From Felixounavirus LF82P2, in sequence record OZ035741.1: 64,000 nucleotides of DNA. One strand, 5' to 3'. A program made the translations under genes and the position numbers. Below, piece after piece: positions 5,126-63,585 of this stretch. The notes beneath the pieces were generated by a model. It was given only the letters and a program-made list of their open reading frames with translations, was not told the origin of the DNA and did no database searches. Positions within the stretch are counted from its first letter, which is position 1. The number at the start of each line of letters is the position of its first letter.

Positions 5126-5509
5126 TCAAATACCTGTGCAGCTTCTGTTTTCTAAGAAATACTCAACACCATACATAGCTTTTTGCATCAAATCTTCTTT
5201 AAACTGGATACGGTGGTTGAGCATAGTTTGTACATCAATATCGTCATGGTGTTTATCTTTAATATTTGCAGATTGCAGGAAATACTCTGCAAGAACACGA
5301 TATTGATAGTCAGTTACCTTATCAGTCATCTCTGTCAAAGACTCTTCAGAGATTGGTTTAAGTAGCTCACCTTTAGATAGAGCAACACCTTTAACAATCT
5401 GGCAAGTGTCTTCTGGGACACCTGATAAGTCCACATTGGGAAGTTCTGTTGCATTGACTGGTAAATTCATTGCCATAACCATTGCAGCAGCTAATAAAAT
5501 CTTTTTCAT
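5126..5509 (-). CDS. hypothetical secreted protein
   Basis: N-terminal signal-peptide-like MKKILLAAAMVMAMNLPVNA. Confidence 0.45.
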   Translation of the reverse strand: MKKILLAAAMVMAMNLPVNATELPNVDLSGVPEDTCQIVKGVALSKGELLKPISEESLTEMTDKVTDYQYRVLAEYFLQSANIKDKHHDDIDVQTMLNHRIQFKEDLMQKAMYGVEYFLENRSCTGI

Positions 5510-5599
5510 AATGACCTCAAAGTTATATTAAATTTTGTATTACGTTGAGTATAAAAATAAGCTATAACACCTGACTTGTCAACAGATTTTATAGCTTAT

Positions 5600-5900
5600 T
5601 TGGCAGATTTTTTATAAGGCTACTGCCATCCTTCCATACCTTACCTTACCACACCTAACCATACCTAACCAAACTACACCATACAATACCTTGTTAAAAG
5701 ACCCTTTTAAAGACATTTTAAAAAGGTAAGTCTCATTTTAATGTAGCTGAGACTAACTACCCTTACCTAACCTTACATCACCTTACAAAGCCAAACCTCA
5801 CAATACCGAACCATACCTAGCATCACTTAAAAACCCTCTTAAAAGACTCTTAAATGATGCTGGTGAGTACCCGTTGGTTTATGCTGCTCAGTATACTCAC
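5600..5900. repeat. two tandem ~140 bp units: C/A-rich ACCTAACC-type short repeats, then TTAAAAG-rich AT segment, then a hairpin
   Basis: Unit 1 about 5600-5760 (hairpin AGTCTCA..TGAGACT); unit 2 about 5760-5900 (hairpin GGTGAGTA..TACTCACC); no ORF. Confidence 0.5.
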
Positions 5901-5913
5901 CAAATTTTCTATG

Positions 5914-6102
5914 TCAACAACTTTCTAATAAAGTTTTATGAAGATTTTGCTTAACGACCCGCCTCACATGCCTGTGTTCTTTCTTAATAAAGAGTGACCT
6001 CTTCTTGTCAGAGCGCCTATTCTTGTAAGTATTACTAGGATACTTATCATGAACCGGACAACAGCTACCCGGATTTGTAAACTTGATAATCTCTCTTTTC
6101 AC
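5914..6102 (-). CDS. hypothetical small basic protein
   Basis: 62 aa ORF, Arg/Lys-rich; weak. Confidence 0.25.
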   Translation of the reverse strand: MKREIIKFTNPGSCCPVHDKYPSNTYKNRRSDKKRSLFIKKEHRHVRRVVKQNLHKTLLESC

Positions 6103-8307: not shown

Positions 8308-8871
8308 TCAACTTAGTTTTGCAAACTCTCCGTGGAGTTTAATAGCAGCTTCACAGTAAGCTTTATGGGCTTCTTCTGGTGTGTCAAACATACCAAGATG
8401 ATAGTTTTTACCTTGTAAACGTATCATTGCTCGAAACCTTTTACTTATCTTCTGTACACCTTTTGGCAACCCAGATGGGGACTTTCTTGACCGATTGCAA
8501 GAGTTTTGTGAAGCTGTACAAACCCTTAAATTCAAGTACCTATTGTCCCAACCGTCCCCATTCTTATGGTCAACCTGTAAGTTTTTATCAGGCAGGTATC
8601 CATCCACATATAGTATTGCTAGACGGTTAGCTTGGTAGCCTTTACCATCAAGCAATAACTGAACAGACTTGTGACCATCTGTGTTTATCCTATAATTTCC
8701 TGCCTTTTTACCTCCAAAACGAGAGTTGAAGTTCTTATTGCCTCGTGATACCGGCTCTCTAAACTTCCAAGTAAAGACCCCTGTTTCGGGGTCGTAGTCC
8801 AATAGCTCCTTAAGACGAATTTCTGTAATCATTTCAACACCATCAATGTACTTCCAACCAGCTCTTACCAA
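8308..8871 (-). CDS. HNH homing endonuclease (AP2-like DNA-binding domain)
   Basis: GVFTW motif, HKNGDGWDNRYLNLRVCTASQN HNH core; paralogous to ORF 18423-18947. Confidence 0.65.
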   Translation of the reverse strand: MVRAGWKYIDGVEMITEIRLKELLDYDPETGVFTWKFREPVSRGNKNFNSRFGGKKAGNYRINTDGHKSVQLLLDGKGYQANRLAILYVDGYLPDKNLQVDHKNGDGWDNRYLNLRVCTASQNSCNRSRKSPSGLPKGVQKISKRFRAMIRLQGKNYHLGMFDTPEEAHKAYCEAAIKLHGEFAKLS

Positions 8872-58171: not shown

Positions 58172-58248
58172 AAAAGTTTATCTCTGTTTAGCTCAGCTTG
58201 GTAGAGCGTTCCGTTTGGGGCGGTAAGGCCGGAGGTTCAAGTCCTCCA
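58172..58248 (+). tRNA. tRNA-Pro (anticodon TGG)
   Basis: 7 bp acceptor stem, T-loop GGTTCAAGTCC, anticodon loop TTTGGGG, encoded CCA. Confidence 0.7.
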
Positions 58249-58265
58249 ACAGAGACCAAATTAAT

Positions 58266-58343
58266 GTTCCAGTAGACAAAATGGTATAGTCACCACTCTT
58301 TCAAAGTGGACATCTGAGGGTTCAAATCCCTTCTGGAACGCCA
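58266..58343 (+). tRNA. tRNA-Glu (anticodon TTC)
   Basis: Acceptor GTTCCAG/CTGGAAC, anticodon stem CCACT/AGTGG, loop CTTTCAA. Confidence 0.65.
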
Positions 58344-58434
58344 GTTTTGACAGAAGACCAAATACAGCAAACTTAATCTTATTCATCTGAAGGTAAATCG
58401 GACAAAGAAGAGATTTGGTCTGGTCATTAAGAAT

Positions 58435-58511
58435 TGCGGGTATAGAGAAAGGGCGTCTCACATGTCTCATTAGCATGGTATCGGCAGGTTCGACTCCTGC
58501 ACCCGCCTCCA
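58435..58511 (+). tRNA. tRNA-Met (anticodon CAT), atypical (T at position 37, mismatch at pair 1-72)
   Basis: Anticodon stem CATGT/GCATG, loop CTCATTA, T-loop GGTTCGACTCC. Confidence 0.5.
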
Positions 58512-58594
58512 AATTTACAGAAGACCGTTTACAGCAACATTTATTAAATTTTTAGCGGAAAAATTGAAAGATACGGTCTGGTAATACTAAACAT

Positions 58595-58671
58595 GGTTAG
58601 GAAGCACATAAGGTATGTGCGGTCGCCTGTTAAGCGAATGGCACAGGGTTCGAATCCCTGACTAACCGCCA
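58595..58671 (+). tRNA. tRNA-Asn (anticodon GTT)
   Basis: Anticodon loop CTGTTAA; T-loop GGGTTCGAATCCC; CCA encoded. Confidence 0.65.
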
Positions 58672-58740
58672 AATTTAGGAGAGAAGCGATTGCTCACCGA
58701 TTTGTAAGGTGCAAGTCCTTAGCCTGAATAGAAATTAAAT

Positions 58741-58828
58741 GTGTCGTTATCCCGTAGATGGTAGCGGTGGGGACTGTAAATCCCTTGTCATTGAGACTCG
58801 GTAGGTTCGACTCCTACACGGCACACCA
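58741..58828 (+). tRNA. tRNA-Tyr (anticodon GTA), long variable arm
   Basis: Acceptor GTGTCGT/ACGGCAC, anticodon stem GGGGA/TCCCT loop CTGTAAA, 88 nt. Confidence 0.7.
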
Positions 58829-58833
58829 ATAAA

Positions 58834-58911
58834 GGTTATGTAGTTTAATTTGGTTAAAATACTCCCCTGTCACGGGAGATGATGAGGGTTCAAATCCCTT
58901 CGTAACCGCCA
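58834..58911 (+). tRNA. tRNA-Asp (anticodon GTC)
   Basis: Acceptor GGTTATG/CGTAACC, anticodon stem CTCCC/GGGAG loop CTGTCAC. Confidence 0.7.
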
Positions 58912-59081
58912 ATTTTGAGAGGGCTATTTAGCCCCTCCCTTAAAGGGTTCTTACGAGTATCCTTTAAAGGAGCAGAAGACCAAATACAGCAAGTTACTTA
59001 AAATTTCAAGCCAATTTAATTTTGAAAAATTTAAAACTTGGTCTGGCTCAACAAATTTACAGAAGACCGTTTACAGCAAAA

Positions 59082-59178
59082 CTTAAACAATCTATTTCTC
59101 GGTAAAGAAAAGGCGAAGGTTCGATTCCTTCACTCGGCAGATGTCGAGTTGGTGTAATGGTAGCACTTAAGATGATAA
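59082..59178 (+). pseudogene. tRNA halves in permuted order (3' half upstream of 5' half); possible circularly permuted tRNA or rearranged pseudogene
   Basis: 3' part 59082-59139 (CTTAA, variable-arm hairpin, T-arm GAAGG-TTCGATT-CCTTC, acceptor ACTCGGC) then 5' part 59143-59178 (acceptor GTCGAGT, D-arm, TTAAG, loop ATGATAA). Confidence 0.35.
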
Positions 59179-59339
59179 ACAACGGTCTGGTAATTATCTT
59201 TGTAGATAAGTTATTAAGCTTACCTGTGAGTATGCGACCACAAAGGGTGAAAGGGTAAATTCTAGATTTAAACCCAAAAAGGCACATCGCTACAGACCTT
59301 AAGCAAGTCTGGGTAGCTTATCTACAAAGATAATTTAAT

Positions 59340-59415
59340 GGAAGTGTAGCAGAATGGTGATGCGGCAGACTTTTAATCTGACAGGCGATGGGTTCGAATC
59401 CCTCCACTTCTACCA
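59340..59415 (+). tRNA. tRNA-Lys (anticodon TTT)
   Basis: Acceptor GGAAGTG/CACTTCT, anticodon loop CTTTTAA, T-loop GGGTTCGAATCCC. Confidence 0.65.
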
Positions 59416-59419
59416 ATAT

Positions 59420-59496
59420 GGTTCAGTCGCAGATAAGGTAATGCAAGGGTCTCATAAGCCCTATGAATGTGGGTTCGAATCCCATCTGAACCTCCA
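59420..59496 (+). tRNA. tRNA-Met (anticodon CAT), GGG/CCC anticodon stem (initiator-like feature)
   Basis: Anticodon arm AGGGT-CTCATAA-GCCCT; acceptor GGTTCAG/CTGAACC fully paired. Confidence 0.65.
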
Positions 59497-59498
59497 AT

Positions 59499-59573
59499 TG
59501 TGGGTTAGCATAAATGGTAATGCAAACGGCTGATAACCGTTAGAAGAGGGTTCGATACCCTCACCTACAACCA
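59499..59573 (+). tRNA. tRNA-Ile (anticodon GAT)
   Basis: Anticodon arm AACGG-CTGATAA-CCGTT; T-loop GGGTTCGATACCC. Confidence 0.7.
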
Positions 59574-59591
59574 AGTTCAATAAAGTTGTTG

Positions 59592-59620
59592 ACATTGAGA
59601 TGTGACTACTTTATAGTAAC
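59592..59620 (+). promoter_or_regulatory. sigma70-like promoter inside tRNA cluster (TTGACA-17-TATAGT)
   Basis: Consensus -35 and good -10 in spacer after tRNA-Ile. Confidence 0.45.
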
Positions 59621-59821
59621 CTTAGTTTTCGTTGCGTAGCGTCTATTTTGCAAATTTAAAATAAATGCAAACGACAATGTTTTTCTGGCAGTAGCTTGAT
59701 AGGCTAAACACCAGTGAGGTCTTCCAATCCCTCATCAAAGAATTTGGCGTACTCGCCCACGGTATGATTAATAAGGTGGGCATCTTTAAGGGCTTTCTAA
59801 GAGAGTCTTTAAAGATAATTA

Positions 59822-59903
59822 CGGGGCGTATCTCAGCGGTCTTCTAAACCGCCGTTAACCGAGTAAGTGGAGTATGCGGGTTCGAGTCCTGCCGCCTCGA
59901 CCA
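59822..59903 (+). tRNA. atypical tRNA-like gene (possible Arg, anticodon TCT), non-canonical arm arrangement
   Basis: Acceptor CGGGGCG/CGCCTCG plus T-arm GCGGG-TTCGAGT-CCTGC and CCA; perfect hairpin GCGGT-CTTCTAA-ACCGC sits where the D-arm should be. Confidence 0.4.
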
Positions 59904-60046
59904 ATTTAGTTAGCAGATTACTTAGACGACCTAAGCGGGTCTTCCTGTAGGGAGGTGGTCTGTATCTCATGTTTTCCAGAACATGTAAATAATCTGAGAA
60001 GGGGCTTTACAGTGTTGAGATAATACGGTAAGCTTCGAATTATAGT

Positions 60047-60129
60047 ATGGGACGATGTTAAGACTCTAAGGCATGAGCAACGGCCTCCAAAACCGTTTCA
60101 AAGGGGTTCAACTCCTCCGTCCCATGCCA
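60047..60129 (+). tRNA. tRNA-Trp (anticodon CCA), enlarged D region (83 nt)
   Basis: Perfect acceptor ATGGGAC/GTCCCAT, anticodon arm ACGGC-CTCCAAA-ACCGT, T-loop GGGGTTCAACTCC. Confidence 0.5.
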
Positions 60130-60142
60130 AAGTCTTATTAGG

Positions 60143-60230
60143 GGTAGGTAGCGGCTAATGGCAGCCAAACAGTCTTGAAAACTGTTGCCACTGTAGAGAT
60201 ACGGTGAGGGTTCGACTCCTTTACTTACCG
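60143..60230 (+). tRNA. tRNA-Ser (anticodon TGA), long variable arm, CCA not encoded
   Basis: Anticodon arm ACAGT-CTTGAAA-ACTGT; long variable arm; T-loop GGGTTCGACTCC. Confidence 0.65.
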
Positions 60231-60488
60231 CCTAATAAGATTTTTAAAGCCAAGCTTCATTCGGATGTTGCTTTGGTATCCCTCGTGTATTGTCGTACAC
60301 ACTGATAAAACACCTAGTAGGTGTCACGGAGAAGAGATAATATCAAGCTCTCCAAAGGTTCTAGTCACCGGATTAAACAAGACTATGCAAAGACCTTTTA
60401 GGTCTTTTTAGAGGGCTTCTAAGGTTATTACAGCTTGTTGTGGAACCTTGTTGCTTAGGTTCTTAGAAGTTCTCTAAAAAGATTTAAT

Positions 60489-60566
60489 GGGAGATTGACG
60501 GTAATTGGTAAACCTATCTCGCTTAGAACGAGATGTTTGAGGGTTCGAATCCCTTGTCTCCTACCA
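60489..60566 (+). tRNA. tRNA-Leu (anticodon TAG) with short variable loop
   Basis: Anticodon arm TCTCG-CTTAGAA-CGAGA perfect; discriminator A; T-loop GGGTTCGAATCCC. Confidence 0.55.
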
Positions 60567-60573
60567 AATTAAT

Positions 60574-60649
60574 GCAGGTGTAGCAAAATGGTTATGCGGC
60601 TGACTCTTAATCAGTAAGACGATGGGTTCAATTCCCTCCACCTGTACCA
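60574..60649 (+). tRNA. tRNA-Lys (anticodon CTT)
   Basis: Scaffold similar to tRNA-Lys(TTT); anticodon arm GCTGA-CTCTTAA-TCAGT. Confidence 0.55.
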
Positions 60650-60655
60650 AACAAT

Positions 60656-60731
60656 GGGGTCATAGTTTATATGGTTAAAATTCGAGTTTTGCAAACTTGG
60701 GAACTGAGTTCAATTCTCAGTGACTCCACCA
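60656..60731 (+). tRNA. tRNA-Ala (anticodon TGC)
   Basis: Acceptor GGGGTCA/TGACTCC with G3-T70 wobble; anticodon loop TTTGCAA. Confidence 0.65.
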
Positions 60732-60737
60732 ATTAGT

Positions 60738-60812
60738 GCATCCATAGTTTAAACGGGAAAATTACAGTCTTCCAAACTGAGGTTGAGGGTTCGATTCCCT
60801 CTGGATGCTCCA
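60738..60812 (+). tRNA. tRNA-Gly (anticodon TCC)
   Basis: Acceptor GCATCCA/TGGATGC; anticodon arm ACAGT-CTTCCAA-ACTGA. Confidence 0.65.
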
Positions 60813-60826
60813 AATTAAGGTGTGAT

Positions 60827-61240
60827 ATGAAAATATGCAGTACTTGCAGAATACCAAAAGATGAAAGCTTATTCCATAAGAATAAGAACAAGAAAGACGG
60901 TCTTCAAAGTCAATGCAAAGATTGTGCAAGACTCCGTGATGCAAAGAGTTATCAAGCAAATGATAAAAGGAAAGAGGCTATTAAAAGCACTCGTAACTTC
61001 AAGAGAGAGCATAACAAGACTCTAGCTAGAAGGTACAAAGCTTTATGCAAATGTCATATATGTGGTGAGAAAGAACCAGTTGCACTGGATTTACACCATA
61101 CAGACCCTTCCCAGAAAGATTTGAATCCTGCATCACTTTATTCATACTCCACAAAAAGATTAAAAGATGAAATCAGAAAGTGCATTGTCTTGTGCGCTAA
61201 CTGTCACAGAAAAGTACATGCTGGTATCATAAAAGTTTAA
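60827..61240 (+). CDS. HNH endonuclease embedded in tRNA cluster
   Basis: Cys-rich N-terminus and C-terminal DLHHTD..CANCHRKVH HNH motif. Confidence 0.6.
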   Translation: MKICSTCRIPKDESLFHKNKNKKDGLQSQCKDCARLRDAKSYQANDKRKEAIKSTRNFKREHNKTLARRYKALCKCHICGEKEPVALDLHHTDPSQKDLNPASLYSYSTKRLKDEIRKCIVLCANCHRKVHAGIIKV

Positions 61241-61241
61241 T

Positions 61242-61318
61242 GCTGCTTTCGTATAATTGGCTATTACACATCCCTTGTAAGGATGGAAATGCAGGTTCGA
61301 GTCCTGTGAGCAGCACCA
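61242..61318 (+). tRNA. tRNA-Thr (anticodon TGT)
   Basis: Anticodon arm CATCC-CTTGTAA-GGATG; T-loop GGTTCGAGTCC. Confidence 0.7.
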
Positions 61319-61413
61319 ATTCAGAGGTCAAGTGAAAGACCGCTGGTGTCAACTGAAGACCGTAACAAATTCCACGGAGTTGAGTTAGCGGCACAACTTC
61401 AGACCTCTTTCAT

Positions 61414-61488
61414 ACTCGCTTAGTTTATATGGTAAAACATCACCCTTACAAGATGAAGAAAAAGGTTCAAGTCCTTTAGTGAGTACCA
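61414..61488 (+). tRNA. tRNA-Val (anticodon TAC), one mismatch in anticodon stem
   Basis: Acceptor ACTCGCT/AGTGAGT; anticodon arm TCACC-CTTACAA-GATGA (C-A mismatch). Confidence 0.5.
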
Positions 61489-61489
61489 T

Positions 61490-61567
61490 GTTCCAGTATC
61501 CCAATTGGCAGAGGATGCAAGCTCAAACCTTGTACTAGTGACGGTTCGAATCCGTCTTGGAACACCA
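61490..61567 (+). tRNA. tRNA-Leu (anticodon CAA) with short variable loop
   Basis: Anticodon arm GCAAG-CTCAAAC-CTTGT; discriminator A; T-loop GGTTCGAATCC. Confidence 0.55.
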
Positions 61568-61572
61568 ATTTT

Positions 61573-61648
61573 GCAGGATTAGTTCAAATGGATAGAGCAA
61601 CAGTCTACGAAGCTGTTAATAGGGGTTCGAATCCCTTATCCTGCGCCA
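61573..61648 (+). tRNA. tRNA-Arg (anticodon ACG)
   Basis: Acceptor GCAGGAT/ATCCTGC; anticodon arm ACAGT-CTACGAA-GCTGT. Confidence 0.7.
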
Positions 61649-61667
61649 ATTTAAAGAGGCTATTTAG

Positions 61668-62225
61668 ATGAGATATTTGAAGTATGCTTCATGGATTTTC
61701 TTAGCTTTGTTAGAACCATTTGCAGCAATCTTAGCAGTTATCTTAGCACCTTTTGTAGTTCCATTTTACAGTGAGAAGAAAGGACACTTACCTTTCGGAT
61801 TTAGATGGATGGAAACTTATGACAACCCAATTGATGGTGATGAAGGTCACGTTAAAAGATGGGCTAATATTAGATGGATTGGTAAGCTTGGTGTCTATAT
61901 GCAGAGAGTCGGTTGGCTCTGGAGAAACAAAGCTTATAACTTCTCTTACCATGTGTTAGGAAGAGATGTAAAAGATGTTACTAAGTGGAAAGGTAATATC
62001 AACGTAAGTTCTAACCCTGAAGATAATCAGACAGGTTATCTCCTAATGTGGAACAGCAATGCTTGGGGATTATTCGCTTTTATACCATCAATTAAAATCT
62101 TTGGTAAACAGTTCTACTGGAGAATTTATATTGGGTGGAAGCTAAAAAGTGTTGTCCCAGAAGAAAGAGCATTCTCAAGGGAAAGAGTTATGTTGGCATT
62201 CTTTATTCATCCACTAAGAAATTAA
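61668..62225 (+). CDS. hypothetical membrane protein embedded in tRNA cluster
   Basis: 185 aa; hydrophobic N-terminal segment, Trp-rich. Confidence 0.4.
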   Translation: MRYLKYASWIFLALLEPFAAILAVILAPFVVPFYSEKKGHLPFGFRWMETYDNPIDGDEGHVKRWANIRWIGKLGVYMQRVGWLWRNKAYNFSYHVLGRDVKDVTKWKGNINVSSNPEDNQTGYLLMWNSNAWGLFAFIPSIKIFGKQFYWRIYIGWKLKSVVPEERAFSRERVMLAFFIHPLRN

Positions 62226-62233
62226 AGATTTAA

Positions 62234-62309
62234 AGGGGATTAGTTTACAAGGTTAAAACCTCGGTCTTTGAAATCGAAGAAGTTGGTTCAATTCCAACAT
62301 CCCCCGCCA
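62234..62309 (+). tRNA. tRNA-Gln (anticodon TTG)
   Basis: Anticodon arm TCGGT-CTTTGAA-ATCGA; T-loop GGTTCAATTCC; pair 1-72 mismatched. Confidence 0.6.
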
Positions 62310-62311
62310 AT

Positions 62312-62390
62312 GCTCCATTACTCCAATTGGCAGAGAGGCCAGACTTAAAATCTGTGTTATGTATCGGTTCGAATCCGATATGGAGTACCA
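62312..62390 (+). tRNA. tRNA-Leu (anticodon TAA) with intermediate-length variable region
   Basis: Anticodon loop CTTAAAA; discriminator A; D region similar to tRNA at 61490. Confidence 0.5.
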
Positions 62391-62395
62391 AATTT

Positions 62396-62471
62396 AGCGG
62401 TATAGCATAACTGGCAATGCAACAGTCTCTGAAGCTGTCTTATTAAGGTTCAAATCCTTATGCCGCTGCCA
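62396..62471 (+). tRNA. tRNA-Gln (anticodon CTG)
   Basis: Anticodon arm ACAGT-CTCTGAA-GCTGT; T-loop GGTTCAAATCC. Confidence 0.55.
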
Positions 62472-62502
62472 CTTCTAAGGGTTCTTACGAGAGTCCTTAA
62501 AT

Positions 62503-62578
62503 GTGGCCTTATCATAAATGGTAATGACCCATGCTGTGAACATGGTCTATACGGGTTCAAATCCCGTAGGTCACCCCA
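62503..62578 (+). tRNA. tRNA-His (anticodon GTG)
   Basis: Anticodon arm CCATG-CTGTGAA-CATGG; discriminator C. Confidence 0.7.
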
Positions 62579-62583
62579 ATTTA

Positions 62584-62660
62584 TAGTCCAAGTAGCTTAT
62601 ATGGTTAAAGCGCGTGTCTGAAAAACATGAGAAGAGGGTTCAAATCCCACTGGACTACCA
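62584..62660 (+). tRNA. tRNA-Phe (anticodon GAA)
   Basis: Acceptor TAGTCCA/TGGACTA; anticodon loop CTGAAAA. Confidence 0.6.
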
Positions 62661-62676
62661 ATTTCAAAGGTGCTTA

Positions 62677-63411
62677 ATGAAAGAGATGACAGAACAAGGT
62701 AAGGAGATTTTTAATCTCTTAAAAACCGGTAAAGGGTTTTCTAACCCACTTATTACTGGTGCAGCAGTTCTCGGTGGAACCGTAGCTGCTTCTACATCAC
62801 TTGTAAGCTCTATTAGTTCTGTAACAGACCCTACAATGCAGGAGAAACTTGTTGCTGCTGGACTTACAACAGTCCTTCTAAACAGCTTTACAACAAGCCT
62901 TACAAGCACTACAGCAACTACTAAGACCCTGACAGACTACGGTCAAAAATCTATTGATGAGTTTTCATCACGTATGCAGGTAGCAAAGGGATATTCCAAT
63001 GTTATGGGTGCAGCAGGAGAACAAGTTGGTTGTACACCGTTCAGTGGTATTATGGGTGTTGCTACAGAATATGGTCAAAAAGCTATTGATACGATTAACA
63101 GTACACTAGAGAGTGTTAACAATGTATTAAGTGACTTACAAGACGCTATTGACAAGGGTCTTGATACTGTTTCTGATTTAGCTAACCAAGCTGTCAGTAA
63201 GATTAATGAAGGTATCTCAAAGATTACAGCTTATGCAGATGAAGTTGTGCAGATGATTGAAGAAGAATCTGCCCTTATTGCAGAGTACCTTAAAACGAAT
63301 ATCAATGGGTTCTTAGCAGGTATCTTACCAGACTGGTTTGATGATGCCTGTAAAACTGGTGTAATTGACACTATTGCAACACCAGAAATGAAGAACGCAT
63401 TACAGAAATAA
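62677..63411 (+). CDS. hypothetical protein embedded in tRNA cluster
   Basis: Track ORF 62614-63411 overlaps tRNA-Phe; start moved to ATG 62677 after AAAGG RBS; Thr/Ser-rich then helical. Confidence 0.45.
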   Translation: MKEMTEQGKEIFNLLKTGKGFSNPLITGAAVLGGTVAASTSLVSSISSVTDPTMQEKLVAAGLTTVLLNSFTTSLTSTTATTKTLTDYGQKSIDEFSSRMQVAKGYSNVMGAAGEQVGCTPFSGIMGVATEYGQKAIDTINSTLESVNNVLSDLQDAIDKGLDTVSDLANQAVSKINEGISKITAYADEVVQMIEEESALIAEYLKTNINGFLAGILPDWFDDACKTGVIDTIATPEMKNALQK

Positions 63412-63412
63412 T

Positions 63413-63505
63413 GGAAGATTAACCCTAAAAGGTAAGGGAGCAGTTTGCTAAACTGACAGTAGCTGAGAAATCGGTGTACCAGTTCAAGTCTGGTATCTTC
63501 CTCCA
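63413..63505 (+). tRNA. tRNA-Ser (anticodon GCT), long variable arm
   Basis: Perfect acceptor GGAAGAT/ATCTTCC; anticodon loop TTGCTAA; 93 nt. Confidence 0.65.
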
Positions 63506-63509
63506 ATTT

Positions 63510-63585
63510 GAATCCGTGACAGAAATGGCTATGTGCCTGTCTGCAAAACAGGTTTATAAGGGTTCGAGTCCCTTCGGATTCTCCA
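63510..63585 (+). tRNA. tRNA-Cys (anticodon GCA)
   Basis: Acceptor GAATCCG/CGGATTC; anticodon arm CCTGT-CTGCAAA-ACAGG. Confidence 0.7.

Follow-up and report, generated by a model that had tools for sequence, protein, structure and literature searches.

VIPR is a phage system that silences rival genetic elements, and its mechanism is known from two preprints that are not peer reviewed (bioRxiv 10.64898/2026.04.26.720920; bioRxiv 10.64898/2026.04.26.720927). According to both, its guides, the vrRNAs, measure about 100 nt and combine 9-16 GGY/NN repeats with a 3' tail that does not vary and in the SUSP1 clade is a pseudoknot, and the NN bases pair with double-stranded DNA in such a way that every third target base is skipped; the targets in the SUSP1 clade are mostly an E. 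coli satellite phage. One Vipr protomer (RAMP fold, about 20 kDa) grips each GGY, as seen in the structures of bioRxiv 10.64898/2026.04.26.720927. The VIPR preprints place vipr next to the vrRNAs, usually together with a vap gene, and it is also reported there that internal repeat degeneracy is frequent in vrRNAs and that some satellites have vrRNAs of their own. VIPR is a newly reported RNA-guided DNA-recognition system and has been proposed as an ancestor of CRISPR effector proteins. The locus described here illustrates that the sequence by itself suffices to recognise VIPR guide genes.

The phage analysed here is Felix O1-like (Felixounavirus, Ounavirinae) and belongs to the same subfamily as the model phage SUSP1; its closest relative is NRG857CP1, with 96% identity over 20 kb. 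The window, that is the whole stretch of 64,000 nucleotides that was analysed, contains a repeat element in a 404-bp gap that separates two minus-strand features. We read this element as a pair of orphan vrRNA genes, the remnant of a type II VIPR locus after deletion of vipr and vap1, with a probability of roughly 0.87, and the identification of the units as vrRNA genes of type II (SUSP1-clade) VIPR is well supported. Both units have tandem GGYNN repeats, within the range of 9-16 described for vrRNAs and with a conserved GGY, the NN positions are hypervariable between conserved flanks, and each unit ends in the invariant 3' pseudoknot tail of the SUSP1 clade. Gapped NN complementarity to a competing mobile element was found for unit A and is suggestive only for unit D. 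A vipr gene does not adjoin the vrRNAs in the window, though in SUSP2 and wV8 the VIPR locus lies at the syntenic position. The features of the locus are as follows.

5914-6102, minus strand: small ORF adjoining the ATP-dependent DNA ligase gene; one border of the 404-bp gap
5890-5917, minus strand: P1, sigma-70-like promoter TTGACA-16-TATACT (11/12 consensus matches), upstream of the first guide unit
5861-5902, minus strand: inverted repeat TGGTGAGTA/TACTCACCA, 9-bp perfect, over the P1 -10 box and outside the vrRNAs
5819-5861, minus strand: leader D, 20-bp hairpin, -18.6 kcal/mol, z-score -6.4, 0/200 shuffles folding as well
5763-5822, minus strand: vrRNA-D repeat tract, 8/11 pentamers with canonical GGY and the other 3 with TGT
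5729-5762, minus strand: vrRNA-D 3' tail, H-type pseudoknot with covariation, stem 1 GUAG/CUAC and stem 2 AGUCUCA/UGAGACU
5720-5728, minus strand: UACCUUUUU, terminator-like, directly after tail D
5710-5767, no strand assigned: 58-bp 'DR_4' repeat, single copy, comprising tail D and the start of leader A; putative deletion junction
5687-5728, minus strand: leader A, inverted repeat UACCUUUUUAAAA / UUUUAACAAGGUA, weak fold, z-score -1.8
5636-5690, minus strand: vrRNA-A repeat tract, 9/11 pentamers with canonical GGY and the rest with TGT or AGT
5602-5635, minus strand: vrRNA-A 3' tail, pseudoknot with the geometry of tail D, stem 1 AAGG/CCUU and stem 2 GGCAG/CUGCC
5554-5582, minus strand: P2, promoter-like TTGACA-17-TATTTT, -35 box in the hairpin loop; the inverted repeat ends in a T-run
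5548-5601, minus strand: hairpin around P2, arms of 19 nt, 3' side U-rich, just upstream of gene 5126-5509
5126-5509, minus strand: gene, FelixO1p155 homologue; the other border of the gap

The original prediction had described two tandem non-coding units of about 140 bp at 5540-5900, with C/A-rich pentamer runs, AT-rich segments and a hairpin in each. All of these elements are present, the region is non-coding and the tandem arrangement is real; the element extends over 5548-5917 instead, and the measured spacing of the units is 127-133 bp. The minus strand, to which the transcript had been assigned, is the relevant one, and on it each unit reads as a leader hairpin, followed by 11-12 pentamers of GGY plus NN and by a 34-nt 3' pseudoknot tail. 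Since the functional unit is read in this direction, the AGTCTCA/TGAGACT hairpin does not belong to the first unit as had been proposed, but forms stem 2 in the tail of unit D, the upstream one, where it is also predicted by folding. The hairpin given for the second unit, GGTGAGTA/TACTCACC, exists as well, but it overlaps the P1 -10 box and is part of neither RNA. The arrays are confined to this place: six consecutive CCNNN (at most one mismatch) occur 7 times, all within 5629-5817 (expected 0.04), a period-5 scan of both strands gave no other pentamer array in the 64 kb, and there is no further copy of the units there. Tandem Repeats Finder reports periods of 5, 10, 15, 20 and 25 at the locus.

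Tract D begins with TGCTA and continues with GGTAT GGTTC GGTAT TGTGA GGTTT GGCTT TGTAA GGTGA TGTAA GGTTA GGTAA, that is 11 repeats and one degenerate repeat. Tract A reads GGTAT TGTAT GGTGT AGTTT GGTTA GGTAT GGTTA GGTGT GGTAA GGTAA GGTAT, which gives the guide dinucleotides AT AT GT TT TA AT TA GT AA AA AT. Each RNA would be about 95-100 nt long, with ends deduced from sequence and comparison, and the support for expression of an RNA of about 100 nt consists of predicted geometry, namely promoter, hairpin and U-run. P1 lies upstream of the locus in 29 of the 29 related loci that were parsed, vipr-carrying and vipr-less alike, and the palindrome over its -10 box, likewise conserved in loci with and without vipr, may be an operator. 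Leader D may be a processing site or a promoter/operator. The element formed by tail D and the terminator-like sequence carries a terminator annotation in phage ASO1B. The hairpin at 5548-5601 is conserved in every relative examined, and because the P2 -35 box lies in its loop and a T-run closes the inverted repeat, this stretch could serve both as terminator of the guide transcript and as promoter or operator of gene 5126-5509.

Conservation in related phages, whose absence the original prediction had named as part of what would speak against it, was found. Flanks, leaders and tails hardly differ between the window and humlepung, UAB_Phi87 and wV8, and the pentamer tracts keep their phase and their ACC, which is GGT in the RNA, with the two intervening bases almost randomised. 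The NN positions are thus hypervariable and the flanks conserved between phages at 90-95% identity, and 69 unique guides were recovered from the 29 parsed loci; the vrRNA-D guide occurs only in the window among the loci sampled. The pentamer position frequencies are 0.75-0.78 for G at position 1, 0.98-0.99 for G at position 2 and 1.0 for Y at position 3, with positions 4 and 5 near even, the values for positions 2 and 3 being partly circular since the array parser accepted only pentamers with G as second and a pyrimidine as third base.

The tails fall into three classes (T1, T2 and T2b), which align without gaps over 34 nt and share one H-type pseudoknot, ..((((..[[[[[[[.)))).......]]]]]]]. 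Paired cells amount to 91.6%, compared with 72% in shuffles and at most 42% with the partners slid, and changes on both sides are seen in 9 of the 11 pairs, with the structure derived from the same sequences as were scored and with few independent classes. In the fold and covariation analysis, which had been proposed as a check, the tail pseudoknot covaries, leader D folds better than its 200 shuffles and leader A folds weakly. Rfam has no family at E <=1 in 5400-6050, and at gathering thresholds tRNAs alone match in the window. The genome papers of Felix O1, wV8 and UAB_Phi87 contain no description of these repeats, and the GenBank labels in this region are only 'DR_4', 'repeat_region', promoter and terminator. 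Elsewhere in the window, 24 tRNA genes lie on the plus strand at 58182-63582, which is typical of Felix O1-like phages, and an HNH/AP2-like ORF of the homing-endonuclease type, identified by eye, is found at 8308-8871 immediately downstream of the gene for a 909-aa DNA polymerase, the 3' end of which it overlaps.

The link to VIPR comes from relatives. SUSP2 and wV8 have, at exactly this locus, genes for proteins of 195 aa and 146 aa, flanked on either side by guide units, 3-5 in all. The 195-aa protein shares 97.9% identity with its phiSUSP1 counterpart and has nine of the ten published contact residues (H17, K33, E71, M72, R138, C173, D177, W178 and R179), the RNA/DNA-contact residue at position 175 being V where T is reported. 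This identifies the 195-aa protein as Vipr and the 146-aa protein as Vap1; Pfam has nothing for either. Furthermore, among 120 IMG/VR loci fetched by (ACCNN)x6 alone, loci of a few kb each, a Vipr-HMM match is present in 29 of the 47 with diverse NN and in 1 of the 73 with low NN diversity, the scan itself being noisy in that these 73 include many plain microsatellites. The split confirms the association of arrays with Vipr independently of the preprint.

Two further observations were made in IMG/VR. Very large and diverse GGYNN arrays lie beside distant Vipr homologues (E-values 1e-11 to 1e-20) in six unrelated phage contigs (L028, L040, L036, L049, L055 and L026), with up to 52 overlapping pattern matches and AT-rich spacers between units in L040, and these loci are probably VIPR systems with many guides. 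A near-invariant tract, CCTTACCTAACCTAACCTTACCTAACCTAACCTG, is common to more than 12 viral contigs (L008, L009, L014, L025, L029, L031, L051-L053, L068, L088, L091 and L095) and is often followed by short direct repeats like TGTATCCATTTTGGATACAT; at these loci there is no Vipr-HMM match, and NN is constant between contigs, unlike in vrRNAs.

The guides were compared with the E. coli satellite, which was located through the phage gene that follows the tape-measure gene. The satellite is about 11.5 kb long, carries tape-measure, baseplate and large serine recombinase genes and often a Dam-like methylase gene and an HNH gene, and was found in 474-477 of 5426 complete E. coli genomes. At least four insertion sites are in use (yciI-tonB, a DUF72 gene near yecN, the interior of mdtG, and the vicinity of ymdF; satellites L151-L165), and IS elements often interrupt the satellite. 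When one target base is skipped between dinucleotides, an NN match of at least 80% to satellites is obtained for 30 of the 49 guides of vipr-carrying phages and for 8 of the 15 orphan guides, among them a UAB_Phi87 guide that matches at 22/22. With skips of 0, 2 or 3 the same threshold is reached by 1 guide in 66 and by none in the vipr-carrying-only or orphan-only class; the sole exception is unit A of the window (18/22 at skip 3), one of two guides common to both classes. All matches of at least 82% (61/61) fall inside the satellite and none in the roughly 13 kb of flanking chromosome per locus. The 1-nt-skip targeting rule and the array-Vipr link are therefore both reproduced independently of the preprint.

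For the predicted vrRNA-A, the computation shows complementarity to a satellite promoter. Its best match, 20/22, is at 3911-3943 of L161 and at 4559-4591 of L164, where the site has the form TTGACA-17-TAGTAT, a sigma-70-like promoter about 30 nt upstream of a satellite operon. A score of 20 is reached by none of 1000 shuffles, in which dinucleotide content is preserved but the phylogenetic structure of the satellites is not, and with other skip lengths the score does not exceed 18. Since homology to the unit D site was the basis on which the second batch of satellites was picked, the unit A result was not selected for. For the predicted vrRNA-D the probable target is intergenic and lies in the same satellite, with 20/24 at 8480-8515 of L152 and at equivalent sites in L154 and L163; this match is suggestive only, as 13 of 1000 shuffles reach the same score. 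The homologous site is the top match of unit D in 9 of the 15 satellites, in a stretch also targeted by other guides, and in eight extra satellites the match was not improved, 20/24 still being the best. Neither unit has a self-target in the window, the best scores being 17/24 and 16/22.

The protein genes are missing from the window. With Vipr and Vap1 of wV8 as tblastn queries, no match with E <0.2 was found in the window, and none was found for the two proteins in positions 1-30000 of NRG857CP1, which cover the genome part outside the window; the window represents 64 kb of the roughly 85 kb that the genome comprises, and absence beyond it is judged from this 96%-identical relative. With a Vipr HMM built from 120 homologues (37-99% identity), which picks up Viprs at 29 loci of unrelated phages, the ORFs of the window and of L149 all gave E-values of 1 or worse, the wV8 control giving 3.9e-85, although a very different type of Vipr could escape this HMM. 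The 29 parsed Felix-like loci represent three genotypes, which differ in how far P1 lies from the end of tail A.

One unit, no vipr: about 165-174 nt, 3/29 loci
Two units, no vipr: about 302-323 nt, 9/29 loci, the window among them
Three to five units with vipr and vap1: about 1566-1875 nt, 17/29 loci

Vipr is thus missing from 12 of the 29 parsed loci, and in GenBank 118 Ounavirinae records carry Vipr; matches to the 406-nt region are found in 230 records and to the wider locus in 295. The order in wV8 is P1, unit D, DR_4, unit C, vipr, vap1, unit B, DR_4, unit A, P2, so that two copies of DR_4 flank vap1, vipr and the two inner guide units, and in the window P1 and unit D are followed by one DR_4 only and then by unit A and P2. 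The absence of the cassette would be explained if the two 58-bp copies of DR_4 had recombined. The simplest history is loss, not gain, of vipr-vap1 and two inner guides, the direction of the change being one that we infer. The protein cassette is accordingly a presence/absence polymorphism bounded by the guide units themselves. As a separate observation, the GenBank record GU169904.1, 'Staphylococcus phage SA1' (147 kb), has a Vipr gene 99.5% identical to that of wV8 and also matches the vrRNA region of the window, which suggests that Felix O1-like sequence has entered this record, either because the assembly was mixed or because the label is wrong.

From the published mechanism and the structure of the locus, a course of events can be proposed in which one Vipr protomer would bind each GGY to build a helical filament, the exposed NN dinucleotides would pair with double-stranded DNA with every third target base skipped, and this pairing would repress transcription of the target (all three steps from the preprints). 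Recombination at DR_4 would remove vap1, vipr and the two inner guides and leave the outer two guides, P1 and P2 in place. Alone, the remaining RNAs would be inert, and they would act only if a co-infecting vipr-carrying relative supplied Vipr. The small RNAs suspected in the original prediction would be the most likely product, as a pair. The idea that the GGT-rich repeats are protein motifs holds as far as protein binding goes, with one Vipr protomer per GGY in the published structures, and finds no support with respect to titration. Translational control of gene 5126-5509 finds no support either: the NN dinucleotides form a gapped guide that matches promoter DNA of the E. coli satellite, and with this match the RNAs belong to RNA-guided DNA silencing of another element and not to the neighbouring gene.

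A protein-titrating or translational-control leader for gene 5126-5509 would account for the position of the units, directly upstream of the gene and on the same strand, and for the resemblance of the GGU/AGG-rich RNA to Shine-Dalgarno sequences. However, the promoter-like P2 and a terminator-like hairpin stand between the units and the gene, the units of wV8 and SUSP2 flank vipr and vap1 at both ends of the cassette, and a leader leaves unexplained why NN is hypervariable in a fixed GGY phase and matches the satellite in a gapped manner; we regard such a leader as very improbable. A function at the DNA level, as replication origin, primase-site cluster, Rho-loading (rut) site for antisense transcripts or recombination hotspot, is just as improbable. 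The strong G/C strand asymmetry, the AT-rich segments and the promoters are in line with it, an origin in particular could draw on the promoter, the AT-rich region and an R-loop formed by the G-rich RNA, and the units do flank a presence/absence cassette whose deletion junction is in the repeat. Yet a DNA element does not predict a conserved GGY with free NN, a covarying RNA pseudoknot, the association with Vipr in unrelated phages or the 1-nt-skip specificity, and a role in recombination is a by-product of the repeats and not their function. The VIPR literature, the vipr synteny and the specificity of the target rule also led us to drop a TRAP-like protein-binding leader, a Rho rut site for antisense RNA, an R-loop/T7-like replication origin or primase-site cluster, a G-quadruplex, telomere-like (CCTAA)n repeats, T7 SRL/SRR-type packaging repeats and a decayed microsatellite.

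A different question is whether the orphan vrRNAs persist because of a function that they retain. They might be loaded onto the Vipr of a co-infecting phage, which would give anti-satellite targeting and spare the phage the cost of the protein genes, or they might serve as decoys and tie up a rival's Vipr. Both guides in the window look intact, and orphan guides are as well formed as those of vipr-carrying phages (position-1 G 0.75 versus 0.78). Their rate of satellite matches is similar too, 8/15 against 30/49 and including the perfect UAB_Phi87 guide, and their tails, leaders and promoters are intact. Vipr-less loci are also common (12 of 29 parsed, and about 118 vipr-carrying among 230-295 Felix-like records), and satellites with vrRNAs of their own have been reported in the VIPR preprint. 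On the other hand, recent or recurrent deletions together with recombination with vipr-carrying relatives predict the same pattern: if guides are exchanged through the conserved flanks and the losses are recent or recurrent, intact orphan guides are to be expected. The unit A guide is in fact identical in the vipr-carrying AYO145A (L138) and L146, and the seven satellites checked for them (L151-L157) carry neither vipr nor arrays. About half of the Felix-like phages are without vipr and nonetheless have well-formed guides. The good form of the orphan guides would fit recent or recurrent loss with recombination and retained function equally well, and we consider retention for such work unlikely. 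The more general proposal that about half of the Felix O1-like phages keep intact anti-satellite vrRNA genes without vipr for use in trans, by borrowing the Vipr of a co-infecting relative or by reprogramming or saturating that of a rival, appears to us doubtful to a slightly greater degree; if true, orphan vrRNAs would be a 'guide-only' strategy in the conflict of phage, phage and satellite. Orphan guides offer a simple experimental handle on whether they are relics or exploit the protein of other phages.

Some features of the locus have parallels outside VIPR. PeSL (promoter-early stem-loop) cassettes of T4-type phages are intergenic repeats of a promoter and a stem-loop that flank variable genes and mediate gain and loss of these genes by recombination; unlike the units in the window, they have no pentamer tract, pseudoknot tail or guide function. 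The TRAP-binding leader of the Bacillus trp operon has 11 (G/U)AG triplets spaced 2-3 nt apart, each held by one subunit of a protein oligomer, with spacers devoid of information, and this RNA acts on the operon to which it belongs. The likeness lies in a conserved triplet about every 5 nt with free spacers between; in the window the spacers are the guide, and no TRAP homologue is involved. Orphan CRISPR arrays and the solitary CRISPR repeats or mini-arrays of phages are likewise guide genes without a cognate effector, usable in trans or relics. They differ in that the guide in the window is interleaved with a protein-binding motif every 5 nt instead of following a repeat-spacer order, in that the VIPR effector is a different one, and in that there is no acquisition machinery. 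Closest of all are the type II VIPR vrRNAs of SUSP1. In the text of the VIPR preprint, as far as it was available to us, no mention was found of phage vrRNAs without vipr (bioRxiv 10.64898/2026.04.26.720920), and the window differs from SUSP1 in lacking vipr and vap1 and in having two units, compared with four in SUSP1. In other respects the two agree: both come from Ounavirinae and occupy the same locus, with 11-12 GGY/NN pentamers, a 3' pseudoknot tail, a predicted length of about 100 nt and 1-nt-skip complementarity to the same E. coli satellite family.
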